Counted from the stretch's first letter, positions 5,102 to 32,735 are shown. The stretch: 64,000 nt of DNA from Patescibacteria group bacterium (GCA_038064695.1 JBBTSO010000001.1:85932-149931); one strand, 5' to 3'. Made by a program: numbers and translations. Notes: generated by a model from the sequence alone, not told the origin.

Positions 5102-5139
5102 AAGTTGCTCACGAAAATGATGCGGAGCATCGGTTTTGT

Positions 5140-5262
5140 GAGAGAAAGAAAAAGGATGTTTATATACTTTTTCTTGAACAAACAAAACCGTTCGGGAGTA
5201 AATTTTGTTAGAACGCCCCGCCCGTATGAACCGGCTCTGCAAGCCGACGTCATACGGGCGGA
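5140..5262 (-). promoter_or_regulatory. conserved tRNA upstream module (hairpin plus promoter-like segment), copy 1
   Basis: Shares an ordered run of blocks with 17690-17830: ccgcccgtatga...tcatacgggcgg hairpin, ttttgt.agaacgc, acaaaa, tttat.ta. It lies about 40-160 bp upstream of the tRNA-Lys 5' end. Confidence 0.45.
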
Positions 5263-5322
5263 TGTTTGAAATTATGCCTTACTTTTTTACTTTTTTCCAG
5301 CGTTCGTTGTTATACTAACTAT

Positions 5323-5868
5323 ATGACCTTCGTTTTTATTACCGGCCCCATGAAGAGCGGGAAGTCGCTGGAACTGATCGCCCGCGTAGCCCCCTTTGCA
5401 TTTGCCGATAAAAAAATTCTCTACGTTTCACCTGGGCGCAATGTTCGTGAATCAAATGTTCAGTCACGTCTTGGCATCAACGCTGAGGCGATGGTGGCGA
5501 GTTCGCTCAGCGAAATTCCTAGCACCTTTGATGTCGTGGGGGTTGATGAAGTGCACATGTTTGACGAAACAGACGCTCCCATTATTGAGCAGTGGGTGAA
5601 GGGAGGAAAGGATGTTTTTATAAGTGGACTGGATTTAGATTACCGTGGCGGCATGATTCCCATTGTGCAGAGAATTTTTGAATTTCGCCCTGATACCGTG
5701 TTGATGAAAAATGCTGTGTGCGAAGTGTGTCACGTGTACGACGCGCGGTTCACTCAAATTTTAAAAGATGGTGTGGCTGTGCGTGGCGGACTTCCTCCCG
5801 TGGTGCCGGATGATGGGAGTTATCAATATGAGACACGATGCCGCGCGTGTTTTATGAAATCAAACTAG
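5323..5868 (+). CDS. tdk: thymidine kinase
   Basis: P-loop FITGPMKSGKS, VVGVDEVHMF and a C-terminal zinc ribbon (CEVC...CRAC). ATG at 5323 is preceded by ttatact 7 bp upstream. Confidence 0.9.
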   Translation: MTFVFITGPMKSGKSLELIARVAPFAFADKKILYVSPGRNVRESNVQSRLGINAEAMVASSLSEIPSTFDVVGVDEVHMFDETDAPIIEQWVKGGKDVFISGLDLDYRGGMIPIVQRIFEFRPDTVLMKNAVCEVCHVYDARFTQILKDGVAVRGGLPPVVPDDGSYQYETRCRACFMKSN

Positions 5869-6218
5869 TACGGGAGATCAAACGCGATTGCGCCAGCGCC
5901 AGTTAAAACGAGTGTTGCCAAAATAGAAATGGCAAGTATTTTTTCTCGCCAGCCTTCTTTAGGGGCGTCTACCCCAAGCCACATGCCACGTAAAAAAACG
6001 ACCAGTATGCCAAACACGGCAACGAGTTGAGTGAGAAGACCCGCAGCAAAGAAGAGCGCAAACGCGAGCTCTTTGATCGCGAGGAGTTTACTCTTCTGAG
6101 TCTTTAGCATCCACATGCCGTAGGCGTGAAAGAGGAAGTACAACCCAATGCCTGCACGAAGCAGCACAGGGGCAAAGTAGGGGCCTAGAAATAGTAAGTC
6201 TGGAAAAATTGCGTTCAT
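5865..6218 (-). CDS. DoxX family membrane protein
   Basis: About 117 aa with 3-4 predicted transmembrane helices and DoxX-like composition. Confidence 0.55.
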   Translation of the reverse strand: MNAIFPDLLFLGPYFAPVLLRAGIGLYFLFHAYGMWMLKTQKSKLLAIKELAFALFFAAGLLTQLVAVFGILVVFLRGMWLGVDAPKEGWREKILAISILATLVLTGAGAIAFDLPY

Positions 6219-6223
6219 ATGTT

Positions 6224-6257
6224 CAGTATAGAGTATTGAGTATAAAGTATACAGTAT
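6224..6257. repeat. heptad-periodic ATACTNN array filling the 37-bp divergent spacer between DoxX and trmH
   Basis: Reverse complement reads atactgt-atacttt-atactca-atactct-atactg. Both flanking genes start within 8 bp of the array. Confidence 0.6.
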
Positions 6258-6735
6258 GGCTCAAAATATATTTCTCATCATTCACAACGTGCGGAGTGCT
6301 CACAATGTGGGTTCCTTGTTCCGCACCGCTGACGGCATGGGGGTATCAAAAATACTTTTGACAGGCTACACCGGTGCGCCCGTCGATCGTTTTAATAGAA
6401 AAGATTTAAAAATTGCGAAAGTTTCGCTTGGCGCGGAGGATGTGGTGCCGTGGGAAAAGAAAGATATTTTTGAATTGATTTATGATTTACGAAGTAAGGG
6501 TGTAGAGGTTGTGGCACTTGAACAAAGTGCACAGTCTATCTCGCTTGATTCTTTTGTCCCAAAAGGGCCGGTTGCGCTTATTGTGGGGAACGAGATAGAG
6601 GGAGTTACTGAAGATGTGCTGGCTCTTTGCGACGCTGTGATTGAAATCCCCATGAAGGGGGGAAAGGAGTCGCTCAACGTCTCAAACGCTGGCGCTATTG
6701 CGCTCTATCAGTTGTCACAAAAATTGGAATTCTAA
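6256..6735 (+). CDS. SpoU/TrmH family RNA 2'-O-methyltransferase
   Basis: C-terminal SPOUT motif IEIPMKGGKESLNVSNAGAIALYQL. Confidence 0.8.
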   Translation: MAQNIFLIIHNVRSAHNVGSLFRTADGMGVSKILLTGYTGAPVDRFNRKDLKIAKVSLGAEDVVPWEKKDIFELIYDLRSKGVEVVALEQSAQSISLDSFVPKGPVALIVGNEIEGVTEDVLALCDAVIEIPMKGGKESLNVSNAGAIALYQLSQKLEF

Positions 6736-6738
6736 TAA

Positions 6739-6765
6739 GGATTTGAAAAAATTTTTTTCAAATCC
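6739..6765. terminator. bidirectional hairpin terminator between convergent genes
   Basis: Perfect palindrome ggatttgaaaaaatttttttcaaatcc. A second hairpin (gcaatacaaaaa/tttttgtattgc) sits at 6786-6812. Confidence 0.5.
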
Positions 6766-6828
6766 TTGCTAACTTCCTCGACTCAAGCAATACAAAAAAC
6801 TTTTTGTATTGCTCCTCGTTCTACGTCG

Positions 6829-7821
6829 TTAGTAATCCACCGAGTCAATCACTAAGCCGTTTTCATCAAGCAAGCGAATGCGCTCGCGAGTGTTTTTCCA
6901 TAGCTCTTGGTCGCGGTCTAGGTAAATGCGCCACTCATTGTCATAAAAGTTTGTCTCGTTTTTGTACGCGGCCACACAGGCGCTATAGGTGAGGTCTTCC
7001 AAAATAAAGTTTCGACACTGCCCACCAATATTTTGGGGGATTTCGCTCAGGGTACTGCGACACCGCGGAATATTTTCTACAAAGCTAATGCATGCTTCAC
7101 TTGGTACAAAACTTGCCGTGATGGTGTCTGCGAGCACGTCTTCGGGTGCAGGGCACGCTTCTTCAAGGTCGGGTTCAAAGGCTTGGAACTGCGCAAAGTA
7201 GCCGGTGCACACGTTGGTGCGGAATGAGGTGCCAATAGGGGAGCGTCCTGTTACTACATAGATGGTGCTGCCGGGCGAAACCGCCACCGGAGATTCCACG
7301 TTCACCTGCCCCGAATAGGGAAGGTACGCAGCGTTCCCCAACGTTACTCCGAGCGTTGAAACCGTTGAATCAAGACGCCACGATGAAACAACCAGTCGAT
7401 CAGAAATATTTTTTCCAATTTTGATGGTGACATACTCTCCTTCGGGGTCAGTGTCACGAGCTCGTCCGATGCTCAAAGAAACGTCATTCGCGTAGGGGGA
7501 GGTAGATTCATTTATTTCTCCAAATCCGCTTCGAATTCTTTTAATAATACTGTCCAGTGAGTTTTCGGCGTCACGGTCACGGTCGGTGAGATTGGATTCA
7601 CTCGATTCAGGAATGGTGACCCCCGGAATCCCAAAGTCGGTGAGTGAGTACCCCGTTTCATTTCCTAGAGGGAAGGGAGGATTAAGGAAGGGTCCTGAAC
7701 GCGAGATGGCTCGGTCAGGGCCTCCCGTTAACGCCCACACAATTCCAAGCACGACTAAAAAAAAGATAAAAAATAAGAGATCAGTACCAGCGCCACCCTT
7801 TGGTTGTTTCATGGTATGCAT
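6829..7821 (-). CDS. membrane-anchored extracellular protein, possible lamin-tail-like domain
   Basis: N-terminal TM helix (LLFFIFFLVVLGIVW). The GEYVTIKIGKN...LVVSSWRLDS region resembles an LTD fold. No close family recognised. Confidence 0.4.
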   Translation of the reverse strand: MHTMKQPKGGAGTDLLFFIFFLVVLGIVWALTGGPDRAISRSGPFLNPPFPLGNETGYSLTDFGIPGVTIPESSESNLTDRDRDAENSLDSIIKRIRSGFGEINESTSPYANDVSLSIGRARDTDPEGEYVTIKIGKNISDRLVVSSWRLDSTVSTLGVTLGNAAYLPYSGQVNVESPVAVSPGSTIYVVTGRSPIGTSFRTNVCTGYFAQFQAFEPDLEEACPAPEDVLADTITASFVPSEACISFVENIPRCRSTLSEIPQNIGGQCRNFILEDLTYSACVAAYKNETNFYDNEWRIYLDRDQELWKNTRERIRLLDENGLVIDSVDY

Positions 7822-8642
7822 TATACCCTCGTCCAGTGGTCATCAAACGCATCTTCCATAAACCCTGCGATTGCCTGATTTTCAACCATAACTCCCACGT
7901 TATCTTTAAAAGAGAAGAGATATATACGGTTCCCGATCAAATAAATGCCAGCGTTCTGTTCGTCGATGTCGAGATGTTTAATGTCACGTCCCAGTCGTGT
8001 TGACTCGTCGGTGATACGAAAGTCGTCGGGACCTTTCGCAATAAAAAGTTTAGTGATAACCCCCATCGCACTTCGTTTCTTCAAAAATGAACGGATATAC
8101 TCTTCGAGTCCACGTGTTTCCGCAAGAAAGTTGACTCCATATCCGCGAAACCGTTTGTACTTTCCGCGCCTATAGAGGTCAAGCATACTGTCAAATAAGT
8201 GTTCAAGTCCGAGCGACCCTTCATAGTACGTAACGGAGGGAAGTGCAGTGATATTTGACTCGAGGGCTACAGAAGGGGAGAGCCCCGTCTCCAGTGATCG
8301 TTCGATACGTTTGAGTCGTGACTGTTCGTTTTTTATAAATCGGGCAAGGTGGCGATAATCACACACAAAATAACGAATGCCTCCGCGTACAGTTGACGTT
8401 ACTAATCCTTGCTCGCCGAATCGTTTTAAAATGGAATACACCGTTTGACGTGGCTCATCGGTTTTCTTTCCAATGATTGATGCCCGCGCACTTTTTTCTT
8501 CAAGTAACGCCAACGCCACTTTTACTTCCCGTTTTGAAAAGCGAAGGGCAGTCAAAATATCCTCAACATTACCGAAGTCAAAAACGGCTTTACTTCTGAC
8601 CATATCACCATATATACCATAAGTGACGAAAAAATTCGTCAC
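7821..8642 (-). CDS. TrmB-family transcriptional regulator
   Basis: N-terminal wHTH (TVYSILKRFGEQGLVT) plus a C-terminal TrmB-like domain. Confidence 0.5.
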   Translation of the reverse strand: MTNFFVTYGIYGDMVRSKAVFDFGNVEDILTALRFSKREVKVALALLEEKSARASIIGKKTDEPRQTVYSILKRFGEQGLVTSTVRGGIRYFVCDYRHLARFIKNEQSRLKRIERSLETGLSPSVALESNITALPSVTYYEGSLGLEHLFDSMLDLYRRGKYKRFRGYGVNFLAETRGLEEYIRSFLKKRSAMGVITKLFIAKGPDDFRITDESTRLGRDIKHLDIDEQNAGIYLIGNRIYLFSFKDNVGVMVENQAIAGFMEDAFDDHWTRV

Positions 8643-9169
8643 TGTTTCTATAATGAGTTGAGGATAGGTGGCTGACAGGAGAGAAGGGTGCTGAACGGTA
8701 GAAATTTTCTATTTTTATTGCAAAATTTTACTACAGTCTGATAAGAGACTGGTTAAATTTAAAGGAAAAGTATGAATTATAAAGAAAAATATCTCGTAGG
8801 TATGGCTGGCGGGGTTTTGGCTGGTGTTCTATATGAAGTCTTGTTGCAAGGTGGATGTCTTGAGTTTCTCTACTTTGCCGATTAGGAGTTTTCTCCATTA
8901 AAAATATTATTCAAAGTTTTAACTAAAAGATACGTATGGCAAGTGAAAACTTTTCAGAAACTCCTAGGCCTATTTTGAATGGGTACACAATTGGATTTTT
9001 ATCATTTACCGTTGTCATGGTATTGCTAAAACTTACTGACACAATTCCTGCACATAATTCATTTGAGTTGTGTCTTCCTCCTGAGAAATAATGGTGAATC
9101 ACCACACGTAACCTCAAAAGTGGATAGTTGTTAGGCTTTGATGCTTAGAACGCTGCTAGAAACTAACCA

Positions 9170-10402
9170 CTAGTTAAACCCTAGTGCAGCGAGTTCTTCG
9201 CGGACGACGGTGGCGTCGTCCCACGGGGTTTTTTTGCCACCCGCCTCCATAATGTAGGGATCGGTGCCTTTTCCTGAAATTAAAACCGCGTCATTTGCTT
9301 TAGCGAGCGTGAGTGCGTGGTGAATAGCTTCGCGACGGTCCATGACGATGGTGGGCGTTCGTTTCATCTCGGTCGTCATATCATTCACTATTTTTTCAGG
9401 GTCTTCGTCGTATGGGTCTTCATTGGTGAGAATAACGGTGTCGCAATGTTCATCGGCAATTTTCCCCATGAGTGGGCGCTTCCACGTGTCGCGTCCGCCG
9501 CCGGTGTTGCCGAGCACACAAATTTTTCTTTGTGGGTAGGCGCTGTAGAGGGCCTCGAGCGAGTCAGGAGTGTGAGCGTAGTCCACGATAACTTTGAACG
9601 GTTGGCCCGCCTCAATAGGTTCTACCCGTCCGCGGACTTGCGGCAAAGTTTTGAGAGCCTGGAGCGCTGCTTCATGAGGAACACCGAACGCTTCTACCAT
9701 TTTTAATGTTGCGAGAGCATTTAGATTATTGAATGTGCCTGAAAGCGGCGTGAGCGCTGGCATCCCTGACGCCTCTTCATCTCTAAAAGAAATGCGCGTG
9801 GGAACCTGAGCGTTTTCAAAAAAGATACGCACGTTTTCATCGCTCGCGTTTGCTACCAACACGCGGTGTTTTTTGGGGGAGCGCTCCAACTCGTGTACAA
9901 TGGCGCGTTTCGCGGCAACGTAGTTTTCAAAAGAACCGTGACGTTCTAGGTGTTCGCGCTGAATGTTGGTAACGATAAGTCCGTCCAAGTTTAAATAGCG
10001 ATGCCGTTCATCAAGCGTCCCTTCGGAAGTTATTTCAACGATTGCGTGCGTGGCCCCTTCGCGCTTCGCGCGAGCGAGAAAGAAGTGGAGGAACCCTCTG
10101 CCCTGCATAGTCATTTTAAAGCGATTGGGCTCTTCTCCTGACGGGGTTGCAAATCGAATGGTTGAGGCAAGTGCCGTTTTGTACCCCGCATGGGTGAATA
10201 CGACATAGAGCATATCGGCGACGGTTGATTTTCCCTTAGTGCCGGTTACTCCAATCACGGTGAGGTGTTTTGTGGGCGTGCCGTAGTAGTGATAGGCGAA
10301 CAGGGAAAGTGCCTGGTGGTACGGTGCGCGTAGCATATGTACCAGCCACTCGGGCATTACTTTTTTTAAAATCTTTGCAAGAAAAGAAACAATACTATAC
10401 AT
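9170..10402 (-). CDS. Mur ligase family protein (MurE/MurF-like UDP-MurNAc-peptide ligase)
   Basis: ATP-binding GVTGTKGKST and DYAHTPDSLEALY (Mur ligase middle domain). Short for a Mur ligase at 410 aa. Confidence 0.6.
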   Translation of the reverse strand: MYSIVSFLAKILKKVMPEWLVHMLRAPYHQALSLFAYHYYGTPTKHLTVIGVTGTKGKSTVADMLYVVFTHAGYKTALASTIRFATPSGEEPNRFKMTMQGRGFLHFFLARAKREGATHAIVEITSEGTLDERHRYLNLDGLIVTNIQREHLERHGSFENYVAAKRAIVHELERSPKKHRVLVANASDENVRIFFENAQVPTRISFRDEEASGMPALTPLSGTFNNLNALATLKMVEAFGVPHEAALQALKTLPQVRGRVEPIEAGQPFKVIVDYAHTPDSLEALYSAYPQRKICVLGNTGGGRDTWKRPLMGKIADEHCDTVILTNEDPYDEDPEKIVNDMTTEMKRTPTIVMDRREAIHHALTLAKANDAVLISGKGTDPYIMEAGGKKTPWDDATVVREELAALGFN

Positions 10403-10404
10403 GC

Positions 10405-10977
10405 TTATTTGGTGCCTGAGAGGAGTCGTAGCGCCTCGCGGATGCGGTCTTCCGCGCGCGTGAGTTCTTTCGGTATCGCGCGCGCGGTATCGCGCGCCTC
10501 TTTGAGTGAGTACCCCAAGCTGACCAGCGCGTCCACCACTTCGCCATCCGACGCGCCACTGCCCGCGCTCCCCGGTGTTGCCACTACTTTTTCTTTCAAC
10601 TCCAGCACAATTTTTTCAGCTGTTTTTCGTCCAATACCAAACGCTCGCGCCAAGACGCTCGCGTCGTTTCCTGAAATAGCGCTTTCAAGTGTTTGGATGT
10701 CGGCACTGTTTAACACGGCAAGTGCCGAGCGGGGGCCAATGCCGGAAACCGTTAAGAGTAGTTCAAACCACTGTAACTCCTCCTTACTTTCAAAGCCGTA
10801 GAGGTCGTGAGAATTTTCTCTAACCGCAAGATGAGTCCATAATGAAAGCTCAACCCCTTCGCGGGCGCTGGCAAGTGTAGGGGCAAGAACCCGCACACGG
10901 TAGCCCAACTGACCCGCGGAAATGATGACCGAGTCTCGAATGGCTGAGAGTACGGTGCCGTGGATATGTCCGATCAT
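10405..10977 (-). CDS. ruvA: Holliday junction DNA helicase RuvA
   Basis: MIGHIHGTV N-terminus, OB fold, HhH region LLTVSGIGPRSALAVL and C-terminal domain III. Confidence 0.85.
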   Translation of the reverse strand: MIGHIHGTVLSAIRDSVIISAGQLGYRVRVLAPTLASAREGVELSLWTHLAVRENSHDLYGFESKEELQWFELLLTVSGIGPRSALAVLNSADIQTLESAISGNDASVLARAFGIGRKTAEKIVLELKEKVVATPGSAGSGASDGEVVDALVSLGYSLKEARDTARAIPKELTRAEDRIREALRLLSGTK

Positions 10978-11049
10978 AAAGACAGTATAGAGCACTCCGC
11001 ACTCATCATTCAGTGCCAGTGCGGTTCAAACAAAAATGCTGATTTCCTT

Positions 11050-11077
11050 GATACTTTATACTGAATACCGTATACTG
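11050..11077. repeat. heptad-periodic ATACTNN array upstream of rpsT
   Basis: gatactttatactgaataccgtatactg matches 3761-3790 at 22 of 26 positions. It ends 10 bp before the rpsT ATG. Confidence 0.6.
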
Positions 11078-11086
11078 CTTTTCTAT

Positions 11087-11353
11087 ATGGCAATTACTAA
11101 AAGCGCAAAAAAGGCTATTCGCTCTCAAGAGCGAAAGCGTGTATTTAACGTCCGCACCAAACGCGCACTTTCAAGCACCGTAAAGGCGACCTCAGCGGCT
11201 CTCGGGAAAGATCGAAAAGAGCAAAATGAAGTCTTAAAAGCCGCCTACAAGGCAATTGATAAAGCAGCAAAACGCGGCGTCATAAAGAAAAATACCGCAG
11301 CGCGTAAAAAGTCCCGCCTCGCACAACGCCTCAAGAAATCATCCGCAAAATAA
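11087..11353 (+). CDS. rpsT: 30S ribosomal protein S20
   Basis: MAITKSAKKAIRSQERKRVFNVRTKRA is typical bS20. Start set to ATG 11087. Confidence 0.85.
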   Translation: MAITKSAKKAIRSQERKRVFNVRTKRALSSTVKATSAALGKDRKEQNEVLKAAYKAIDKAAKRGVIKKNTAARKKSRLAQRLKKSSAK

Positions 11354-11381
11354 AAAACCGCCCTCAGGGGCGGTTTTTGTT

Positions 11382-11831
11382 TTATGCGTGTGAGAGTTTT
11401 CTCCCTCCCAGCATTTTTTTTACTATAGGAACGCCAAATTTAAATCCTACCCCCGCTAGCGCTGTTGCTACTCCCGCCGCCAAAATTGTTTGAGGCATGT
11501 TTGATTTCTGCTTCATAGGAACATACTCGCCCTCCGCGTCGCGTACGTATCCCTGCGCGCGTGCCCACTCGTCATTTTTCATTTGTCCTTCTTCAATATA
11601 ACTTTGGTATTGTCGATTGCCTGCGAGGTCAGTTTTATACCCGAGCTCATCAGTAAAAGGGGAGCGAGTAGGTTTTGCTGCTGGATCAGCATCGCCACTT
11701 TCAAGGTCTATTCCAAGCACTTCACGCACCTCTTCTAAGTTTGAATAAATCGCTACGATTGCTGCTACTGCCGCAACAAGCATTCCACCCATTAAAATAA
11801 AGTTAGGTCGTTCTTTTTTTGTTTCTGCCAT
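11382..11831 (-). CDS. hypothetical membrane protein
   Basis: Two predicted TM helices. No recognised domain. Confidence 0.35.
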   Translation of the reverse strand: MAETKKERPNFILMGGMLVAAVAAIVAIYSNLEEVREVLGIDLESGDADPAAKPTRSPFTDELGYKTDLAGNRQYQSYIEEGQMKNDEWARAQGYVRDAEGEYVPMKQKSNMPQTILAAGVATALAGVGFKFGVPIVKKMLGGRKLSHA

Positions 11832-11915
11832 AAAAGTAAATTTAAACGCGCCAATAAAAGCGCTATTTGAGCATTATATACTTAAATTCTTATTTTGTCA
11901 AATATTCTGTAAGAC

Positions 11916-12866
11916 CTATTTTGAAAGGGTAGTGATGGGGCGGCTTTGGAGAATATAGAGCGTGCCGTTTTCAATTGCCCACTCAATGTCTTGTGGCCTT
12001 CCGTAGTGCTTCTCAATCATTTCTATAACGTCGGCAAGGTGAAGAATATGTTCATCGGCGAGTTTCTGGGCCTCTCTTTTTTCAGAAGGAATGTCTCTCC
12101 ACTCGCTGTCTCCTGTCTGTTTTTTGTAAAGTCCCTTTTCTTGAGAGGCAATATTTTTTTCAATAATTTCTCGTGGTTGTTTGGAAATCACGTACGCGTC
12201 TGGGGTCACGTGCCCTCCCACCACTGCTTCACCTAAACCCCACGCTCCTTCTATGAATAGGTGATTATGGTCTTCCGTAACGGGGTCTACGGAGAAGGCG
12301 ACACCTGAGGCGTCGCTCTGCACCATTTTTTGTATTACCACTGAAACAGAAATGTCGGTTTGACCAAGATTTTTCTCGTAGCGATAAAAAATAGCGCGTG
12401 GGGTGTAGAGCGATGCCCAACAGCGGCGCACATTCTGAAGCACGTGTTCTTTTGTGGTGTTGAGGTACGTATCGAGTTGACCTGCCCACGCAGCGTCGGG
12501 GCCATCTTCAACGGTTGCGCTGGAACGTACCGCCACAAATTCTGCGTTGAGTGCTCCAAACGCATCCATTATTTCGTTCGCCATCTCTGTAGGAATGGGG
12601 TGGGTATTATTTAAAATGCGCTCCTGAATTTTTTCTGACGCGAGGTCCACGCTCGCCGAGTTTTCAATGGAAACAGGCTTTAAAAGTTCTTCAATTTCTG
12701 CTTTGAGCGACGTTGAGGTAATAAAATGTTCAAAGGCTCCTGCCACCACCACAAACCCTCCTGGAACAGGAATTCCCGCACGGGTCATTTCACCAAGCGA
12801 TGCGCCTTTTCCCCCGGCGATGTTTGCGTCGTCTTTTCCGAGCTCTTGGAAGCGTTTAGTCCACAC
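11916..12866 (-). CDS. PEP-utilizing enzyme, N-terminal ATP-grasp (PPDK_N) domain protein; split pyruvate-phosphate dikinase / PEP synthase, part 1
   Basis: GGKGASLGEM...GIPVPGGF start and the YILQSRPITT C-terminal hallmark of the PEP/pyruvate-binding domain. The N-terminal 72 codons of the listed ORF look like a spurious extension. A GTG at 12866 is the proposed start, but it is uncertain. Confidence 0.7.
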   Translation of the reverse strand: MWTKRFQELGKDDANIAGGKGASLGEMTRAGIPVPGGFVVVAGAFEHFITSTSLKAEIEELLKPVSIENSASVDLASEKIQERILNNTHPIPTEMANEIMDAFGALNAEFVAVRSSATVEDGPDAAWAGQLDTYLNTTKEHVLQNVRRCWASLYTPRAIFYRYEKNLGQTDISVSVVIQKMVQSDASGVAFSVDPVTEDHNHLFIEGAWGLGEAVVGGHVTPDAYVISKQPREIIEKNIASQEKGLYKKQTGDSEWRDIPSEKREAQKLADEHILHLADVIEMIEKHYGRPQDIEWAIENGTLYILQSRPITTLSK

Positions 12867-16480: not shown

Positions 16481-17107
16481 TTATTTTTCAGCCGCAAGAA
16501 ACTTTTGTTCCCATAACTCCATACGTGTCGGAATCTCATCAATGAGTCCTCTCTTTCTTAATATTCCATAAAAGCCTCGATCTATGGTACAAAGTTTCCC
16601 TCGGGAAATACCCTCATAGTGTTCATGATAGTAAGCGAGAAGCTCTTGGTCAGACATCGAAACCCAGTCACGATACGCAGTAGGAATCTCGTCAATTAAA
16701 TTGCGGTTTCGTAGTGTTTGATAAAAACTAGGATCAATGTCTTGTAGTTTTCTCCTCGATAGTCCCTCGTAATGTTCTTTGTAGTAGGCGAGCATCTCGC
16801 TGTCGCTCATTGTTTTCCATGAACGATATTCGCGCGTTTCTTCAGCAGCTTCTCGAGAACGGCCTCCTTCACGTTCGCGAATGCGTCTCTCATCCTCGCC
16901 TTCTCCTGCAGCGCGGTCAGTACCAAGTCGCACGTCGTCTTCACTTCCTGAATCGTTAGCGGTCAGCACTATGCCTATAGCTACAGCCGCAATACTCATA
17001 CCAAGCAAAATCACACCAGTATTGTCTTTGGTTTGTGAGGTATTATCCACACCAAAATAGAATAGCGCTGACTCGGTATTACGCATAGTTCTAAAACCTC
17101 TCAACAT
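16481..17107 (-). CDS. hypothetical membrane-anchored protein with an internal 45-aa tandem duplication
   Basis: N-terminal TM helix. Two copies of MSD(S/Q)E(M/L)LAYY(K/H)EHYEG(L/I)SR.KL..ID..FY..LR.R.LIDEIPT. Confidence 0.4.
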   Translation of the reverse strand: MLRGFRTMRNTESALFYFGVDNTSQTKDNTGVILLGMSIAAVAIGIVLTANDSGSEDDVRLGTDRAAGEGEDERRIREREGGRSREAAEETREYRSWKTMSDSEMLAYYKEHYEGLSRRKLQDIDPSFYQTLRNRNLIDEIPTAYRDWVSMSDQELLAYYHEHYEGISRGKLCTIDRGFYGILRKRGLIDEIPTRMELWEQKFLAAEK

Positions 17108-17201
17108 TGATGGACTTTACTCTCTCCCGGCGTTTGTTGTCAAATAACTACTAATTTTTTGTGGTCACGAGTCACTAAGTATTTCAAACGCTCTCGGTAC
17201 C

Positions 17202-17335
17202 TGCGGGCCGAGCATTATACCCTCGGTCATTGGCATGCAAGCACGCCATGACCCTCGTGTGTGCTCTCGGTAACTAACGTTGCCGATTCGCACAACTTCA
17301 AAAATACTGAAGCAAGCTTCGTATTTTGTTCAGTT
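17202..17335 (-). repeat. additional tandem copies of the tRNA-Arg(GCG) 3' end separated by long hairpins
   Basis: gctctcggta-type copies at about 17202 and 17264. A 17-bp-stem hairpin (cacaacttcaaaaatac...gtattttgttcagttgtg) lies between copies. Confidence 0.5.
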
Positions 17336-17498
17336 GTGCTCTCGGTAGGAAGTGTCTTGTGTAAGACACAAGCACGCATCGGTCACGGATAATTTTCTGC
17401 TAAAAATTTCCGCGACCCGACAAAAGCGACGGCAGGCAGTTTTTGTCCCTGCATAGACAGGTGAGGCGCCGTCGCGCCTCCGGTTTTCGATTCCTACC
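17336..17498 (-). mobile_element. miniature tRNA-3'-end-associated element (copy at the tRNA-Arg-GCG locus)
   Basis: In the tRNA sense it starts ggtaggaatcgaaaaccggag, an inverted copy of the cognate T-loop region. It ends gacacttcct followed by taccgagagcac, a direct repeat of the tRNA 3' acceptor. It contains the ~75 bp core shared with 28033-28105. Confidence 0.55.
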
Positions 17499-20972: not shown

Positions 20973-21452
20973 CTAGTGAGATAGTTTACCACCTAACCAA
21001 CTTTTTTCCAGGTAGTGTTCTTCATAGTGACAATTGGGACAAATGAGTTCAAGATTTAGAAGATCATTGTTACTCCGGTCGCGGTCTTTATGGTGCACGT
21101 GTAAAATTTCTTTTCGACTATACTGGCATCGCTCACACTCTACTCCACGTAGCTGGAGTAGTCGGATTTTTAGAGCTCGTTGTGTTGCCACTTTATCTTT
21201 TGGTCTACCAATATGGTATTTAATGCCAGCTCTATTTTTATTTGCGCAGCTTCGGCTACAAGTTTTTTTATGAAGTTGGGCGAGAATAGGTTTTTCACAT
21301 ATCACACAAGGTTTTTCTTTTCGTTGAGCTTGCGCGTAGCATTTCTGGCCACAAAATACGCGTCCGCGTTTAATTTCACTCGGTCTCCGGTATATCTTTG
21401 TCCCACAAACACTACATCCAATATTAGGATTTCTTTTGTACGATGTGTTCAC
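20973..21452 (-). CDS. HNH endonuclease with N-terminal zinc-ribbon repeats
   Basis: HVHHKDRDRSNNDLLNLELICPNCH (HNH motif) and four CxxC pairs in the N-terminal part. The stop codon lies 6 bp from the tRNA-Ser 5' end. Confidence 0.7.
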   Translation of the reverse strand: MNTSYKRNPNIGCSVCGTKIYRRPSEIKRGRVFCGQKCYAQAQRKEKPCVICEKPILAQLHKKTCSRSCANKNRAGIKYHIGRPKDKVATQRALKIRLLQLRGVECERCQYSRKEILHVHHKDRDRSNNDLLNLELICPNCHYEEHYLEKSWLGGKLSH

Positions 21453-21582
21453 TCATTCAGTATACCACTCATTCATTCAGCCACTCGAGTTGCATTGAGA
21501 CATTTTTGTTTATAACAAAGGTTTCTGAGCCGGGGTCGCGAACCTTAGCATTTTACGAACCAGGGGAGTAAAATGGTTAGGA

Positions 21583-27838: not shown

Positions 27839-27867
27839 GGTATCAATAATGGTATTATCGGCACATT

Positions 27868-27940
27868 GGCCCCGTAGTTTAATGGATAAAACAGGAGACT
27901 TCTAAGCTCTTGATCCAGGTTCGATTCCTGGAGGGGCCAC
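27868..27940 (+). tRNA. tRNA-Arg (anticodon TCT)
   Basis: Acceptor GGCCCCG, D arm GTTTAATGGATAAAAC, anticodon loop CTTCTAA and T arm CCAGGTTCGATTCCTGG. One mismatch at 31-39 and one at 7-66. Confidence 0.8.
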
Positions 27941-27948
27941 CCGCATAA

Positions 27949-27977
27949 AACGCCGACTCTATGTCGGCAGTTTTTAT
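27949..27977 (+). terminator. intrinsic terminator after tRNA-Arg(TCT)
   Basis: gccgactctatgtcggc followed by agttttt. Confidence 0.55.
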
Positions 27978-27992
27978 AAGGGAGGGGCGCTG

Positions 27993-28116
27993 GGCCAGGA
28001 ATCGAAAACCGGAGATGCGACGGCATCGAGGTGGGGTCGCGGAATTTTTCAGCAGAAAAATATCCGTGACCGATGCGTGCTTATGTTTTATATAAGACAC
28101 TTCCTGGCGGGGCCAC
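27993..28116 (+). mobile_element. miniature tRNA-3'-end-associated element (copy at the tRNA-Arg-TCT locus)
   Basis: Starts ggccaggaatcgaaaaccggag, an inverted copy of the tRNA T-loop/3' stem. Contains the ~75 bp core at 28033-28105. Ends acttcctggcggggccac, a direct repeat of the tRNA 3' end ttcctggaggggccac. Confidence 0.55.
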
Positions 28117-28826
28117 TAAAGCACTATTTCTTTTTTCTCTCTGAGTAGGCGGATACCGAGGTAGGAGAGCGGGGTATACAAGAAACCCATCGCTACCTTA
28201 AAGAGCCACCACGTAATAATAATGCTAATGAGCGTGTTGGTGTCGTAGACTCCCAAAAATGCAATGAGCATAAAAATGACCGTGTCTAAAAGTTGAGACC
28301 ATGTGTTTGAAAGGAATGAGCGAAGCCAAAATAATTTTGCGCCGAATTTTTCTCGAAAAAAGAAAAACGACACTACGTCTTGATACTCTGCAATTAAAAA
28401 CGCCGCGAGCGACGCTACGGCAATGCGAAGCGAAATACCAAATACTTGGTTGTACCCGTTGTGCACCCACTCACCACTTTCTGCCCAGGGAAGCGCGAGC
28501 GAAAGTAGTGAGAATGCAATAAAGAGTGCCGTACTTATAAACCCCGCAAACACAAACAGTTTTGCGATGCGTTTTCCGTACACTTCACCAATAACGTCGG
28601 TCATTAAGAATACGATAGGGAATGAAAACACCGCCACCGAGAGGTGTGAACCAAACAAAAAAGGCATTATTTTTAGCCCGAGCGTGTTTGCGGCAAAAAG
28701 CGCTGTGAGGTACACCGTGAGTGCAATACCAAGGTTGCGAATGGAGCGTTCGGAGAGTTCAGGCATAGTGAATGAAAACAGTATGCCACAGAGAAACAAT
28801 AAGCCGAACATTCTTTTTGCGGTCAC
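28116..28826 (-). CDS. YhhQ-family (queuosine-precursor transporter-like) membrane protein
   Basis: VFSFPIVFLMTDVIGEVYGKR resembles the YhhQ/DUF165 signature. Six TM helices. Confidence 0.55.
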   Translation of the reverse strand: MTAKRMFGLLFLCGILFSFTMPELSERSIRNLGIALTVYLTALFAANTLGLKIMPFLFGSHLSVAVFSFPIVFLMTDVIGEVYGKRIAKLFVFAGFISTALFIAFSLLSLALPWAESGEWVHNGYNQVFGISLRIAVASLAAFLIAEYQDVVSFFFFREKFGAKLFWLRSFLSNTWSQLLDTVIFMLIAFLGVYDTNTLISIIITWWLFKVAMGFLYTPLSYLGIRLLREKKEIVL

Positions 28827-29062
28827 AATTCTTTATTTTGTGGTCACCCGGCGCTGAGAGACTTGGTCAAGCGCTCGTTCGGCGTATAAAACAATGAGCC
28901 GAACATTCTTTATGTGGTCACTCGTCACTAAGTATTTTTCTTCCTGTTGTCGAAAAATACTAAGTGCGTTCGACCCCGCCTCGCGGTCGCGTGCTTCACG
29001 CGACATCACTCCGGCCCCCACAAAGCAAAAAACCGGTACGCAGGTACCGATTTTTGTCTTTG

Positions 29063-29135
29063 TGGGCGCTGAGGGACTTGAACCCCCGACCTTCTCAGTG
29101 TAAATGAGTTGCTCTACCAACTGAGCTAAGCGCCC
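29063..29135 (-). tRNA. tRNA-Val (anticodon TAC)
   Basis: Reverse complement gives GGGCGCT acceptor, GCTCAGTTGGTAGAGC D arm, anticodon loop TTTACAC and T arm GGGGGTTCAAGTCCCTC. Confidence 0.85.
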
Positions 29136-29194
29136 GCTGAGTTTGAATCATAGTATATTAAGCGCCGTTTTTCAAACCGCGGTATAGTTCTTGC

Positions 29195-29473
29195 ATGGGC
29201 GCCGCACTGCACACAATTATTTCCGGGCGAGTACAAATGGTGATGTTTCGTGACTTCACCCAACGTAAGGCTCGTGAACTTGGATTAGTTGGGGAGGTGG
29301 AAAATCTCCCCGACGGTACCGTGCGTGTGTACGCCGAAGGGGAGAAAGAAAAACTTGAAAAGCTCGTTGAACATCTTAATAAAGGGCCTCTGCTTGCACA
29401 TGTTGAGAATGTGGCGGTGTCTTTTTCTGATGCGGTTGGGACCCATAAAGATTTTGTCATTCTATTTGAATAA
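29195..29473 (+). CDS. acyP: acylphosphatase
   Basis: VQMVMFRDFTQRKARELGLVGEVENLPDGTVRV matches the acylphosphatase signature pattern. Confidence 0.75.
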   Translation: MGAALHTIISGRVQMVMFRDFTQRKARELGLVGEVENLPDGTVRVYAEGEKEKLEKLVEHLNKGPLLAHVENVAVSFSDAVGTHKDFVILFE

Positions 29474-29475
29474 CT

Positions 29476-30195
29476 ATGGATATTATTTTTGAAAACAGTG
29501 ACGTGTGCGTCATCAATAAGCCAGGTGCGATGAGTGCTCACCAGGATGGTTTTCGTGAAGAATATACGGTGTCCGACTGGTTTGTGGAGCATGTGCCTTC
29601 CGCAAAAGATGTCGGGGAGCCGCTGGTTTTAAAAGATGGAACGAGTGTCCCCAGACATGGCGTGGTACACCGGCTCGACAAAGAAACCTCAGGGGTAATG
29701 ATACTCGCCAAAACACAAGAAGCGTTTCTCTTTTTAAAAACACAATTTCAAGACCGCGAAGTTGAAAAAGTGTACCGAGCTTTTTTGTGGGGGGAGATAA
29801 AAGTAGACGGTGGTGTTATAGACAAACCAATCGGGCGCTCTCGAGGGGACTTCCGCACGCGTTCAGCAGAGTTTGGCGCCAAACCACCGCTCCGTGAAGC
29901 CACAACAAACTTCACCGTACTCGCTCGTGGCGGGGGATTTACCTACGTTGAAGCACGGCCAGAAACGGGACGCATGCACCAACTGCGGGTGCACTTTAAG
30001 GCACACGGGAACCCCATTGTGTGTGACAAACTCTATATGCCCAGGCGTGACTGTGCCCTTGGCTTCTCTCGCCTTGCGCTCCATGCCCTTTCCCTTTCTC
30101 TAACCCTTCCCACGGGAGAAAAACATACTGTAGAGGCGCCACTTCCTGAGGATTTTCGCCAGGCAGAAGAAGAGATAAGGAAAAACATTGCTTAA
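29476..30195 (+). CDS. RluA-family pseudouridine synthase
   Basis: Catalytic motif HRLDKETSGVMILAKT. Confidence 0.85.
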   Translation: MDIIFENSDVCVINKPGAMSAHQDGFREEYTVSDWFVEHVPSAKDVGEPLVLKDGTSVPRHGVVHRLDKETSGVMILAKTQEAFLFLKTQFQDREVEKVYRAFLWGEIKVDGGVIDKPIGRSRGDFRTRSAEFGAKPPLREATTNFTVLARGGGFTYVEARPETGRMHQLRVHFKAHGNPIVCDKLYMPRRDCALGFSRLALHALSLSLTLPTGEKHTVEAPLPEDFRQAEEEIRKNIA

Positions 30196-30225
30196 AAGCT
30201 CGCTTCATGGTATTTTTCTCCGTAC

Positions 30226-30789
30226 ATGACTATTACGCTAGACGCTAAGACTCTCTCACCGGTAAACGTTGAGGAACGCAAAAATCTCGGTATTCGCGCA
30301 GGGGACACTGTTCGCGTACACCAGAAAATTCAGGAAAAGGGTAAAACTCGTATCCAGATTTTTGAGGGGCTCGTTATTGCGCGAAAACACGGCAGTGAAG
30401 CAGGGGCAACCTTCACCGTTCGCGCCACGCTCTCGGGAGTAGGCGTTGAAAAAATCTTTCCTCTTTATTCACCTCTCATTGATAGAATTGAAATCGCTCG
30501 ACGTTCAAAAGTACGACGCGCAAAACTGTACTACATTCGTGAAAAAGTTGCTCGTGAAATCCGCCGACAACTTCGCAATATGCGCATGGTGTCGCTTTCA
30601 ACCGAAAGTGAACGCGAAGTAGCGGAACGTGCTGAGAAAGAAGCTGCTGATGCCGCTGCGACGCTTCAAGCAGAAGCAGAGGCGAAGGCACTTGCTGAAA
30701 AGGAAGCAGCCGAAAAAGAAGCGGCAGCTGCCGCTCCCGCTCCCGTAGAGCCAACTCCAGAGGTGGCCGAGGAAAACAAAGAGGCGTAG
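30226..30789 (+). CDS. rplS: 50S ribosomal protein L19 with a C-terminal Ala/Glu/Lys-rich extension
   Basis: [29 protein letters not shown] is bL19. A low-complexity tail of about 60 aa follows. Confidence 0.85.
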
Positions 30790-31122
30790 TATAGGATATA
30801 TATATATGTCTTCTATAGAAGAAAGGGCAGGTTTAAAACAGGCTGGTAGAGAACTAAGAGACGTTGGAGTGTATGTAATAGGATGGAGTGCGTTCCATTT
30901 GTTTGCGACCATTCCTGCCATTGTTGTAGGAATAGTTGCAACGCATGCCCTTTTTAATGACATTCCTCTTGATGAGGCGTTTTCTATATTTGCCACAGAG
31001 GAATAGTTTTGTTTGCAAAAAGGCAAAAACCCCATAGAATACAAACACGCGCAGGTATGCAAGTATACCTGAGCAGCATTCGTAGAAAATGCGCACGTTG
31101 TCGCTCGTTTTCCTACTCATTT

Positions 31123-31206
31123 GCGCAGGTGGCGAAATTGGTAGACGCACTACCTTGAGGTGGTAGCTCCCGCAAGGGAATGGAGGTTCAAATCCTCTCC
31201 TGCGCA
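31123..31206 (+). tRNA. tRNA-Leu (anticodon GAG)
   Basis: Acceptor GCGCAGG, anticodon stem CTACC/GGTAG with loop TTGAGGT, a long variable arm and T arm GGAGGTTCAAATCCTCT. Confidence 0.85.
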
Positions 31207-31210
31207 CACG

Positions 31211-31243
31211 GCCCAAAAACTCAAACTTCTTTGAGTTTTTGGG
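31211..31243 (+). terminator. intrinsic terminator after tRNA-Leu
   Basis: gcccaaaaactcaaa-cttc-tttgagtttttgggc. Confidence 0.6.
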
Positions 31244-31371
31244 CACGTATGCGGGCCGGAGCCATGTTTTCCGTTTCGGAAAACGGGCGAGGAGGGGTCA
31301 CAACCGAGGCGAACGACGGTAAGCCGAGAGTTGTGACCACACGGCGATAAATCCGCATCCCGCTTCTTCAT

Positions 31372-31444
31372 GGTGGCTATGGTGTAACGGTTAACACTGG
31401 AGCTTGTGGAGCTCTCGATCAGGGTTCGATTCCCTGTAGCCACC
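31372..31444 (+). tRNA. tRNA-His (anticodon GTG) with genomically encoded G-1
   Basis: GGTGGCTA...TAGCCACC gives an 8-bp acceptor including G-1. Anticodon loop TTGTGGA, T arm CAGGGTTCGATTCCCTG. Confidence 0.85.
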
Positions 31445-31507
31445 CAGAATAATAAAATTCCGCGCGTGCGGGTTTTTTATTGCTCTGGGGGCTAAACGAG
31501 CAAATTG

Positions 31508-31627
31508 TTTTGCTCGTGTTGGGAATCGAAAGTCGGAGCCATGTCGCTTGCGACAGGTGAGACCGGGTAGGAGCCACTTAACGAGTGTGGCGAGTTTAGT
31601 GAGCTGGCGCCGATTCCCTGTAGCCAC
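31508..31627 (+). mobile_element. miniature tRNA-3'-end-associated element (copy at the tRNA-His locus)
   Basis: Starts gggaatcgaaagtcggag, an inverted copy of the tRNA T-loop region. Ends ccgattccctgtagccaccca, a direct repeat of the tRNA-His 3' end. Confidence 0.5.
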
Positions 31628-31655
31628 CCATTTTGTACGTTATAGTTTGAGTAAC

Positions 31656-32735
31656 GTGAAAAGTTTTTTTGAGTTACTGGAGAGATACAAACAACGCCTT
31701 CCTACCGTTGCGCTGGTGGTTGGTTTCGTTGTTGACATCATTACCTTTCGAAATCTTAACCTCTTCTACTCGCAAATTATCCTTGCAACACACCTTGCCA
31801 TTGTGGCGTTTTCAATTTTGATTATCGCGCTTCCCGTAAAAGCTGCTCGAGACTCATTTTTTATGAAAGTGCGGTCATGGCTACCAGTTGCACAGCAGTA
31901 TTCAACGGGTAACCTTCTCTCTGCGTATGTGGTGTTGTACTCAGCGAGCGCCTCAATCGTGAACAGTTGGATATTTTTTGCGCTCCTTGCGCTCAGCGTG
32001 TTAGGAAATGAACTCTTCAAATTAAAGAAGTATCAACTATCTTTCAACACCTCGCTCTTCTTTTTAAACCTGCTGCTCTTCTTTGCTCTAGCGCTTCCGA
32101 TTGTGGTGGGTTCAATTTCAGTAGCGACTTTCTTGCTCGCGTTGATTGCCGGTGCGGTTGTTTTTCAGATTTTTCAATGGATTCTCAGATTCGTGGCGAA
32201 AGAGGTTTTTTTGCGAAACCGCAAAGGCATTCACCGCGGCGCGCAATTCGTGTTTGTGTTCCTTACCGTTCTTTATTTTTTGAACATCATTCCACCTATT
32301 CCGCTTTCACTCAAAGTTGCTGATTTTTATCACCGCGTAGAAAAGGTAGGAAGCGAGTATGTGGCGTACGACGAACCGCGCGGGTTTTTTGAACATTTTT
32401 TTACCGTGCAGGGGAAAACGCTCCGCCTTGCGCAAGGTGAAGACGCATACCTCTTTAGTGCCGTTTTTGCTCCGGCGCGCATCGACGCGAACATCGTTCA
32501 CCGGTGGGAGTTTTTTGACCTGACCTCTGGGCAGTGGCATGCAAAAAATGAAGTAGGGTTCTCTATTGTAGGAGGGCGAGACTTAGGGTATAGAGTATTT
32601 TCTTATACCGAAGACCCCGTGCCTGGCAGGTGGCGGGTATCGGTTGCGACCACCAAAGGTCAGGTGATCGGGCGAGCGTATGTTTTTGTTGAGCGCGTAA
32701 ATACGCCGCCCCTCTTAGAAAGTTTTCAACAGTAA
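31656..32735 (+). CDS. multi-pass membrane protein with a C-terminal soluble domain (hypothetical)
   Basis: The listed ORF starts inside the tRNA-His 3'-end repeat, so it is trimmed to the in-frame GTG at 31656. Six to eight TM helices. Confidence 0.45.
   Translation: MKSFFELLERYKQRLPTVALVVGFVVDIITFRNLNLFYSQIILATHLAIVAFSILIIALPVKAARDSFFMKVRSWLPVAQQYSTGNLLSAYVVLYSASASIVNSWIFFALLALSVLGNELFKLKKYQLSFNTSLFFLNLLLFFALALPIVVGSISVATFLLALIAGAVVFQIFQWILRFVAKEVFLRNRKGIHRGAQFVFVFLTVLYFLNIIPPIPLSLKVADFYHRVEKVGSEYVAYDEPRGFFEHFFTVQGKTLRLAQGEDAYLFSAVFAPARIDANIVHRWEFFDLTSGQWHAKNEVGFSIVGGRDLGYRVFSYTEDPVPGRWRVSVATTKGQVIGRAYVFVERVNTPPLLESFQQ

Follow-up and report, generated by a model that had tools for sequence, protein, structure and literature searches.

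Small Non-coding Insertions Behind Patescibacteria tRNA Genes and Their Putative Base-Pairing Guide

Introduction

Patescibacteria have very small genomes with few mobile elements, and a repeat that recurs behind the tRNA genes of one such genome raises the question of what it is and how it reached its sites. The DNA concerned is a stretch of 64,000 nt from a Patescibacteria group bacterium (GCA_038064695.1, JBBTSO010000001.1:85932-149931), referred to here as the window, with positions counted from its first letter; contigs near-identical to the window's 164,696-bp contig (99.97-100%) are present in Hainich (Hain_H41) metagenome assemblies. The repeat occupies 28033-28105, downstream of the tRNA-Arg(TCT) gene. 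A preliminary description of the sequence had related it to the reverse complement of 17347-17421, to a degenerate copy near tRNA-Lys and to a shared 16-mer, and had proposed that it was the body of a miniature tRNA-linked element holding either recombinase-binding arm sites or a small RNA, or alternatively that it was an independent regulatory module. On balance, and with slightly better than even confidence, we favor the view that the repeat is the core of a group of miniature, non-coding mobile insertions that are specific to Patescibacteria and guided by base pairing.

The tRNA-Linked Unit

Seven tRNA genes are recognized in the window by ARAGORN, and six of them carry a unit downstream on the tRNA strand. 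The sequence downstream of tRNA-Ser was read and contains no unit, leaving it the sole unoccupied tRNA gene of the seven. In the units a hairpin with a T-run is followed by a guide of 7-13 nt, a three-way junction and a direct repeat (DR) of the tRNA 3' end. The window guides are complementary to the T-loop or the 3' end of the tRNA, and the three-way junction comprises P2, which contains a GGA/GA internal loop, the dinucleotide GG and a long hairpin, P3, that ends in GTGAC.

At tRNA-Arg(TCT) (27867-27942; ARAGORN and Rfam) all parts of the unit lie on the plus strand, the strand of the tRNA. The tRNA is an occupied target, and its 3' part from C56, CGATTCCTGGAGGGGCCAC (27922-27940), constitutes the first copy of the repeat (X, or DR1). 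A terminator scan places a terminator-like hairpin with a T-run at 27952-27975, between the tRNA and the guide CCAGGAATCGAA (27995-28006); the guide, or 'anti' strand, is an exact 12-nt complement that pairs with the T-loop/T-stem sequence TTCGATTCCTGG of the tRNA, and it forms stem P1 with the downstream repeat. P2 (28008-28032), identified from fold and covariation, consists of a 3-bp stem, the GGA/GA internal loop and the hairpin ACCGGAG-ATGCGACGGCAT-CGAGGT, and is followed at 28033-28071 by J2/3 (GG) and the P3 hairpin GGTCGCGG...CCGTGACC (28035-28071; 85 bits), with a near-invariant G·U pair, a bulged A, a CAGCAG loop and a final C that is common to the target. An extra hairpin, P4, predicted by folding at 28077-28100, is limited to this sub-lineage and is shared by the window copy at tRNA-Arg(GCG) and the ortholog in L132 (L-numbers denote loci or contigs outside the window that carry cores). 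The unit is completed by DR2, TTCCTGGCGGGGCCAC (28101-28116), the displaced tRNA 3' end, which serves as the 3' strand of P1. Folded alone, this strand forms the closing stem between guide and second repeat copy together with three hairpins (-49.4 kcal/mol, z = -5.1).

The similarities first noticed were borne out, and they belong to this longer structured unit rather than to a 75-nt core alone. A repeat search of the window aligned 28031-28116(+) with 17336-17421(-) over 86 nt (85% complementary arms) and also detected an upstream block absent from the preliminary description, 17468-17495 / 27997-28024 (28 nt, 93% inverted match). The degenerate copy near tRNA-Lys was recovered at 4895-4983(-) by a covariance model built from other genomes (34 bits, E ~8e-6), and three more copies, at tRNA-Val, tRNA-Leu and tRNA-His, were added. 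The 16-mer extends to a 17-nt exact match, TGAGCCGGGGTCGCGAA, between 21526-21542(+) and the tRNA-Lys copy, for which a chance expectation of ~3e-5 in 64 kb was calculated; it spans the most conserved part of the family core, namely the 3' strand of P2a, J2/3 and the start of P3. From there the sequence at 21526-21560 runs on into the 5' half of a 'CTTAG'-type P3 like that of the Val copy (alignment score 37, shuffle maximum 24), and it is thus a truncated relic. The segment at 28033-28105 is, as had been proposed, the conserved body of a miniature tRNA-linked element.

Fold and Covariation

Covariation across copies, the check recommended in the preliminary description, was assessed with RNAalifold and by counting pairs, and compensatory changes were found in both P2 and P3. 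RNAalifold, given a plain MAFFT alignment of cores from different genomes (n = 33), recovers P2a, P2b and P3 as predicted helices, with compensatory changes at 14 of 22 pairs. When flanks are included, the structure that we had named pairs in 86.7% of cells, whereas shuffles give 70% and sliding of the partner gives 34-45%. All six window copies are recovered, at 85, 45, 34, 33, 29, and 10 bits, by a covariance model of other-genome cores, which finds 90 copies in 68 loci. For 89 distinct sequences the paired fraction of cells is 97% (shuffles 74%, slid controls 33-46%), and double changes occur at 19 of 23 pairs, in an alignment which was fitted to the covariance model and hence favors the structure. 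Copies within one genome differ from each other in the sequence and length of P2b and upper P3 while complementarity is retained, and the conserved nucleotides are concentrated in the junction strands and the internal loop.

At one pair of P3, 85 of 87 sequences have G·U; the adjacent pair alternates between G·U, G-C, and A-U. Since a G·U would read A·C on the other strand, and since the complementary strand scores only 16 bits against 85 under the covariance model, the fold belongs to the tRNA-sense strand. In outline the proposed miniature element with a possible small RNA is upheld, and a folded single strand, most simply taken as RNA, is supported far above chance. The fold appears to behave like RNA, and the G·U pairs and the tandem G·A pairs described below suggest that the active form may be RNA, though it could also be folded single-stranded DNA.

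The Guide and the Insertion Junction

The stretch immediately 5' of the core complements sequence that lies upstream of the same copy. Watson-Crick runs between a guide and its own upstream sequence average 9.1, compared with 5.7 for the upstream sequences of other copies, and runs of at least 9 are seen in 47% of own and 5% of swapped combinations. A second pairing of the guide, with the bases immediately 3' of the core, gives a closing stem with a mean of 6.2 bp against 4.05. Guides in the family are 5-19 nt long and track the T-stem of each tRNA (CCAGG, GTAGG, GGG and others).

The geometry of the junction is constant across targets: the element ends ...GTGA(C) and directly abuts X, and the base that follows GTGA(C) belongs to the target, being C56 in tRNAs and T in rplK, and is able to pair with the G that begins GGTC. 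From this junction the guide reaches ~2 nt to the 5' side (the T-loop TT, i.e., T54-T55; CG; GA) and 5-16 nt to the 3' side. Internal mismatches between guide and target are mainly G·U (6, versus 1 A·C and 3 others), and in one sub-family GAGAA replaces TCGAA, which produces tandem G·A opposite G57-A58 of the T-loop. Copying of the guide from the target at the time of insertion was judged unlikely, because in the fresh rplK copy of L132 two G·U occur between guide and target whereas the 44-nt repeats are identical. These matches suggest that base pairing selects the insertion site.

Distribution in Patescibacteria

A pattern of conserved positions found at least 120 loci in one-genome-per-species contigs, with ~65 true copies among the matches listed and the remainder high-GC chance matches; a stricter pattern found at least 120 further loci in metagenomes, and core copies in Patescibacteria contigs total at least about 190. 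Their consensus, GAAAG-CCGGAG-hairpin-GAGGCGGGGTCGCG...CGTGACC, is in full GAAAG-CCGGAG-CGCGACGGCG-CGAGGC-GG-GGTCGCG(variable hairpin, loop CAGCAG)CGTGACC. A tRNA gene lies on the same strand within 300 nt upstream of 131 of 186 cores (70%) and on the opposite strand for 6, with 19 tRNA isotypes represented. The scenario that would have undone the preliminary description, in which only the window copies exist and no structure is conserved, is clearly at odds with these results.

The true matches listed derive from Saccharibacteria, Paceibacterota/Parcubacteria, Kaiser-, Adler-, Yonath-, Berkel-, and Moranii-bacteria and unnamed metagenome-assembled genomes (MAGs), together with one Elusimicrobiales; the family is otherwise restricted to Patescibacteria. 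The Elusimicrobiales record (L029; JBAYJD010000001.1) holds a typical fresh copy with a 56-nt perfect repeat, in a MAG so labelled, and is the only listed true match outside named Patescibacteria or unclassified records; it may reflect mis-binning or a real occurrence. Viral contigs gave nine pattern matches, all of them high-GC chance matches, and an origin as a phage attP site was rejected on these grounds.

The family is broader than the search pattern and the covariance model capture, given divergent cores (L254 1555-1790 and L132 6326-6499) that are without the CCGGAG/P2 signature and retain the guide, a GGGGTCG-type hairpin and the ...GTGA(CC)|repeat end. A modular sub-family is represented by two elements in L132 (11600-11660 and 4008-4068) with an identical-type extra P3 domain of ~60 nt, CACAGGAGTACTTCCATTTCTCTAATTCG...ATAAGAGAAATTG. 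The variable leaders contain three recurrent modules, namely a loop GAATRCTTGGAGC, a hairpin GCAGGCAAA-CTGC-TTTGCCTGC, and AAAGGTGTACAGYTCCTGTAAGGA; examples are found in L103, L115, L031, L036, and L002, in L113, L101, L081, L053, and L090, and in L132 (16760-16790), L005, and L080. The CTGC loop is present in the Lys and Val hairpins of the window as well.

At gathering thresholds Rfam 15 recognizes only tRNAs in the whole window, and at E up to 10 over 27850-31700, which contains four copies, it returns no relevant family, ribozymes and introns included. Literature searches by topic and by core sequence yielded nothing relevant and no paper quoting the sequence of the element; the group I introns published from Patescibacteria tRNAs are a different feature. 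This family of tiny non-coding tRNA-linked insertions is apparently undescribed so far, the element being in broad kind a small non-autonomous insertion element.

Target Duplications, Other Sites and Gain or Loss

Target duplications are ~7 nt long in the 3'-end class, 16-26 nt in the T-loop class, and otherwise 44 to ~97 nt. Repeats of the T-loop class span C56 to the tRNA end, those of the window being 27922-27940/28101-28116, 17591-17609/17334-17351, and 31427-31446/31611-31630. Long repeats that are 100% identical and include host-specific trailer sequence occur in L029 (56 nt), L113 (44 nt), and L132 (44 nt). Units are ~90-260 bp without cargo and reach ~2.4 kb with it: L075 carries 2.4 kb encoding small membrane proteins and a DnaJ-type zinc-finger protein, and L067 carries two open reading frames (ORFs) together with tRNA-His and tRNA-Arg. 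Tandem arrays are seen in L119 (perfect 150-nt units), L078, L115, and L047 and at the window Arg(GCG) locus.

Insertion sites extend beyond tRNA 3' ends, to the 3' ends of topA (L015, L074) and rplK (L132), a 5S rRNA gene (L002), the region of the terminator downstream of an S9-like gene (L083) and the 5' half of tRNA-Ser (L070, L036, L106). In L010 the element lies within uvrC, where a 444-aa ORF reads through it in frame and gains ~30 residues between conserved Cys motifs. The uvrC and recombinase region of this contig extends over 2915-4249 and 5077-6972 and includes a 631-aa large serine recombinase ORF antisense across tRNA-Ala.

Comparison of relatives reveals gain or loss. The syntenic contig L132 (RluA 66% identical) has an element at rplK where the window has none, and the tRNA-Val genes of the two carry elements of different classes. 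The tRNA-Leu element of the window and that of L132 are ~93% identical by eye over trailer, hairpin, guide and P2, yet the tRNA bodies differ, and an element that is more conserved than the adjacent tRNA body points to recent spread. A unit at tRNA-Arg in L254 is lacking from the close relative L067; its downstream repeat has the sequence of the empty site, and its upstream copy deviates at a few bases.

Other Copies in the Window

The Arg(GCG) and His copies share the plan of the Arg(TCT) copy, with the sequence of their own tRNA in both guide and repeat, whereas in the Val, Leu and Lys copies the guide matches the last tRNA bases and the trailer, and the repeat is short. Each Arg copy lies on the strand of its own tRNA, minus in the case of Arg(GCG) (17334-17498; 45 bits, 18/18 repeat), in which the guide (17486-17498) and P2 (17463-17483) are followed by a 44-nt insertion, P3 (17381-17418), P4 (17352-17375), and DR2 (17334-17351). 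Older layers lie beyond it on the same strand at 17155-17272, comprising two partial tRNA 3'-end repeats (17260-17272 and 17190-17199) and a relic P3 3' half ending GTGACC-ACAAAAAA (17155-17184). The Val copy (28908-29066, minus; 33 bits) consists of X CCCACAAAG (29058-29066), a hairpin (29028-29055), the guide CTTTGTGGG (29017-29025), P2 (28978-29015), P3 (28916-28975), and the 3' strand ACATAAAG (28908-28915), and past it a partial-repeat tail (28794-28907, minus) has two ends, GTGACC-ACAAAA and GTGACC-GCAAAAAG. The further partial repeats and GTGACC-ACAAA ends behind Arg(GCG) and Val are remains of older copies. Just past the Arg(GCG) relic stack lies a 208-aa ORF without a Pfam match (16481-17107, minus), which holds two repeats of ~50 aa, …SMSDxELLAYYxEHYEGxSRxKL…IDxxFYxxLRxRxLIDEIPT.

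The Lys copy (4890-5030, minus; 34 bits) has X GACAAAAT (5023-5030), a hairpin (4997-5014), the guide ATTTTGTC (4983-4990), P2 (4941-4979), P3 (4897-4938), and the 3' strand GACAAAG (4890-4896). On the plus strand, the Leu copy (31203-31345; 29 bits), which has an ortholog in L132, comprises X CGCACACGGC (31203-31212), a hairpin (31210-31244), P2 (31255-31292), P3 (31295-31338), and the repeat ACACGGC (31339-31345); the His copy (31427-31630; a weak 10 bits) comprises X from C56 (31427-31446), a terminator-like hairpin, the guide GGGAATCGAA (31521-31530), a degenerate core (31531-31610), and DR2 CGATTCCCTGTAGCCACCCA (31611-31630).

The truncated relic (21526-21560, plus), with the 3' strand of P2a, J2/3 and the 5' half of P3, lies 40 nt upstream of a GNAT gene. 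Beside it, and directly upstream of tRNA-Ser, is an HNH endonuclease ORF (20973-21452, minus; Pfam HNH and HNH_3). Elsewhere in the window, AT-rich clusters of the motif GTATAGAGTATTTAGTAT and its inverse, with ~14-nt periodicity, occupy four intergenic gaps at gene boundaries (3357-3388, 3755-3788, 6224-6257, and 11031-11077) and could be a common promoter, operator or terminator signal.

Proposed Mechanism and the Search for a Partner Enzyme

The unit consists of a variable leader, often with a hairpin and T-run, an internal guide and a conserved junction that folds on the tRNA-sense strand. This anatomy is shown by the sequences, as are its covariation, the agreement of guide with target, the duplications, the gain and loss among relatives and the confinement to Patescibacteria. 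In the mechanism that we propose, the guide would pair with the target across the insertion point, such that the element comes to lie immediately 5' of the paired target segment. This segment is duplicated over 7 to ~97 nt, which leaves the upstream gene intact, and the displaced copy closes the junction as stem P1. Insertion may be carried out by a trans-acting enzyme or by chemistry of the fold itself, and the variable duplications that include host trailer, the exact 3' junction and the variable leader look more like a target-primed or staggered-nick process than conservative site-specific recombination.

Copies would then probably spread between relatives by homologous recombination, which natural competence in Patescibacteria makes plausible. 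Such later spread of occupied alleles fits both the repeats that stop where the tRNA does and the mosaic ones seen in L015, L074, and L254. Genetic manipulation of Patescibacteria is the subject of a published study (PMC10633639).

A more radical version, to which we give a substantial though less than even chance, is that of a protein-less element which programs its own target, the junction RNA being either catalytic or the specificity subunit of a conserved host enzyme. The guide would then pick any site with a complementary 7-16 nt and insert a copy of the element beside it, duplicating the target so that the gene survives. If true, this would be a minimal, naturally retargetable RNA-guided insertion system that is widespread in Patescibacteria.

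Several observations weigh against base-pairing-guided insertion as we propose it. A Pfam scan of 40 window ORFs revealed no partner enzyme, the first 52 kb containing housekeeping genes only, and the cargo ORFs of L075, L067, and L247 show no recombinase or reverse transcriptase in Pfam. Group II introns, which in bacteria would be the obvious provider of a reverse transcriptase with an endonuclease, are reported absent from Patescibacteria in a published survey (PMC13011429). In the window a terminator-like hairpin stands between each tRNA and its core, and transcription of the core is consequently not assured. The preference for G·U over A·C is based on 10 mismatches, which are small numbers, and folded single-stranded DNA sites tolerate G·T wobbles too. 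Most repeats of the 16-26 nt class stop near the tRNA 3' end, as would likewise be expected of an element that carries its own tRNA end in the manner of classical integrative elements. The two repeats in L015, L074, and L254 also differ in a way that fits uptake of a foreign allele by recombination.

The search for a partner gave a similar picture outside the window. No integrase adjoins any of the about 190 cores, no reverse transcriptase was seen in the DNA fetched (loci, not whole genomes), the 90-260 bp units contain no ORF, and the genes beside the elements have nothing in common. Large serine recombinase genes were detected by tblastn in two of ~250 loci, L247 and L010, and both belong to separate islands. 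The L247 gene was considered as the element's own integrase and rejected: it encodes a 598-aa protein in a 5.3-kb island (7366-12700) that is inserted in tRNA-Val and lies between this gene on one side and an older mini-element with a decayed tRNA 3' half on the other, and it is the decayed half preceding the mini-element that assigns the recombinase to a separate island.

Alternative Explanations

An unlikely but serious alternative is that the units are integron-like or integrative mini-cassettes. They would excise as a circle containing X, cargo, guide and core, and the junction, as folded single-stranded DNA, would be an attachment site whose P1 mimics the target duplex and is acted upon by a tyrosine or serine recombinase of the host or encoded separately. 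The topology is that of attC, with the guide as inverse core, a structured region, a core repeat and a crossover at the stem base, and the bulged A and G·T of P3 recall attC extrahelical bases. Repeats of the T-loop class end at the tRNA 3' end like those of tRNA-integrating islands, successive units accrete in tandem at one tRNA, and the cargo of L075 (2.4 kb, small proteins) and L067 (two ORFs, two tRNA genes) would suit cassettes. However, in fresh copies 44-97 nt of host-specific trailer are duplicated, a stretch that an incoming circle is not expected to bring, and conservation lies in the junction and not in the stem to be cut, the reverse of attC. The targets are also too varied for a sequence-specific recombinase, and integrases are missing beside the ~190 cores, with the serine recombinases of L247 and L010 confined to their own islands.

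The core might also be a small self-cleaving or self-ligating ribozyme in a retrozyme- or viroid-like element, which we consider improbable. One guided active site would cut 5' of either repeat to release a unit-length RNA that circularizes and re-enters targets bearing X. Such activity would account for the exact boundary between core and target, with GTGA(C) then X in nearly all copies, for the presence of two equivalent cleavage sites per core in the form of the two repeats, and for the perfect 150-nt tandem units of L119, and it would agree with the RNA-type pairs and the conserved nucleotides of the junction strands and internal loop. Against this, Rfam finds no ribozyme at E up to 10 over 27850-31700, and no reverse transcriptase was found that could return RNA to DNA. 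Known motifs were compared by eye only, and none fitted: the hammerhead has similar junction strand lengths (7/3/1) and dissimilar sequences, and HDV-like (hepatitis delta virus), hairpin, k-turn and retron msr/msd structures gave no fit.

A shade less probable again is a structured RNA in the tRNA 3' trailer that serves the host in processing, stability, termination or maturation and is not mobile today, the repeats being by-products. Cores lie behind most tRNAs in two genomes, same-site copies have been kept where RluA is only 66% identical, and some copies are 9-27 nt from the tRNA and would be co-transcribed with it. Such a role is at variance with copies in or behind topA, rplK, uvrC and 5S rRNA, with presence that varies among close relatives and different element classes at one tRNA, and with tandem arrays, truncated relics and conservation of the element beyond that of the tRNA body. 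Finally, the duplex-DNA module of the preliminary description, with recombinase arm-type sites or an independent regulatory role, can be set aside as highly improbable: P3 is a near-palindrome as duplex with a 4-6 nt center and the relic at 21526 is 40 nt upstream of the GNAT gene, but within a single genome P2b and upper P3 change freely in both sequence and length with complementarity kept, the palindrome is interrupted on one strand only by the near-invariant G·U (85/87) and the bulged A, the fold is strand-specific (reverse strand 16 bits versus 85), neighboring genes share nothing, and cores are also seen within or after protein genes and a 5S rRNA gene and as tandem arrays, and are present or absent between relatives.

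Comparison With Known Systems

Each of the closest known systems appears to fail at least one of the defining features tested, and the element is therefore filed under none. The attC cassettes of integrons are alike in that they are non-coding, with an imperfectly palindromic, strand-specific fold at the 3' end of the unit that is closed by an inverse-core/core pair and has the junction at the stem base; their arrays also grow at one site and cargo is optional. In attC, however, the closing stem is conserved, whereas here it is variable and matches the target, and it is the interior that is strongly conserved. The closing stems GGAATCG/CGATTCC, GTTTGTG/CACAAAC, and ACGTCGAT/ATTGATGT differ at every target and do not follow the R''/R' core (RYYYAAC ... 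GTTRRRY). Any tRNA or gene end is used in place of a dedicated attI, the repeats are long and variable, and no integrase of an intI/attI/Pc platform was found in the 40 window ORFs (Pfam) or beside cores elsewhere.

Short interspersed nuclear elements (SINEs) and other retroposons of the kind mobilized by non-LTR (long terminal repeat) elements, and retrozymes, are similarly short, non-coding and non-autonomous, with a conserved structured 3' part and an exact 3' junction, variable target duplications, truncated copies and tandem units. The junction, always GTGA(C)|X, and repeats of 7 to ~97 nt are as expected for target-primed insertion. In contrast to these elements, no 3' tail, internal promoter, partner reverse transcriptase or known ribozyme motif was found here, and SINEs have no counterpart to the internal, target-complementary guide. 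The guide sequences of introns are close in this respect, as a short internal stretch that pairs with the target on both sides of the insertion point, covaries with it and tolerates G·U. The core of the element is only 60-100 nt, though, and matches no intron model, and its target is duplicated and not interrupted, so that splicing is unneeded. Group II domain V, compared by eye, has a similar 9-bp lower helix with a 3'-strand bulge and no overall fit; in a like comparison with the template and variable repeats (TR/VR) of diversity-generating retroelements, the differences in L015 proved not to be adenine-specific.

As with the bridge (seek) RNAs of the IS110/IS1111 families, an element-borne non-coding RNA could specify the target by base pairing. 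Those RNAs have two internal guide loops, whereas the element has one guide stem and two hairpins, and IS110-family elements leave only a 2-nt core where long duplications are found here; no DEDD or serine recombinase lies in or beside the units. tRNA-integrating islands and their integrase-less derivatives, the cis-mobilizable elements (CIMEs), likewise target the tRNA 3' part, keep the gene intact through a repeat and accrete at one tRNA. The tRNA 3'-part repeat is present at both ends of the element as in such integrative elements, yet an integrase inside it is lacking, and genomic islands are one to two orders of magnitude larger. MITEs (miniature transposable elements with inverted repeats), repetitive extragenic palindromic (REP) sequences and Correia-type repeats are also small and present in many copies, and differ from the element, whose conserved fold shows RNA-type covariation across a phylum-level group. 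Unlike MITEs, the element is without terminal inverted repeats that belong to it, the target being one strand of its only end-to-end stem, and its duplications of 7 to ~97 nt are not of fixed length. Left flanks that end in unrelated sequences, together with duplication of the target, separate it from IS200/IS605 and palindrome-associated transposable elements (PATEs).

An unannotated family of structured RNA or DNA thus appears to span much of a major bacterial lineage, and most tRNA genes examined carry one or more units despite the very small genomes of Patescibacteria. Recognition of the family would improve the annotation of tRNA loci, in which displaced 3' ends and tRNA-like fragments can confuse gene callers, and would supply markers for strain-level variation; the element also allows one to ask what moves DNA in Patescibacteria. 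Should the core be the site of an unknown recombinase, a folded junction that mimics its target would still be a new kind of attachment site. If instead the guide selects the site, the element would constitute a very small (core ~60-100 nt) sequence-programmed insertion system, a guide-based one that differs from CRISPR-associated transposons, from IS110 bridge RNAs and from group II introns.

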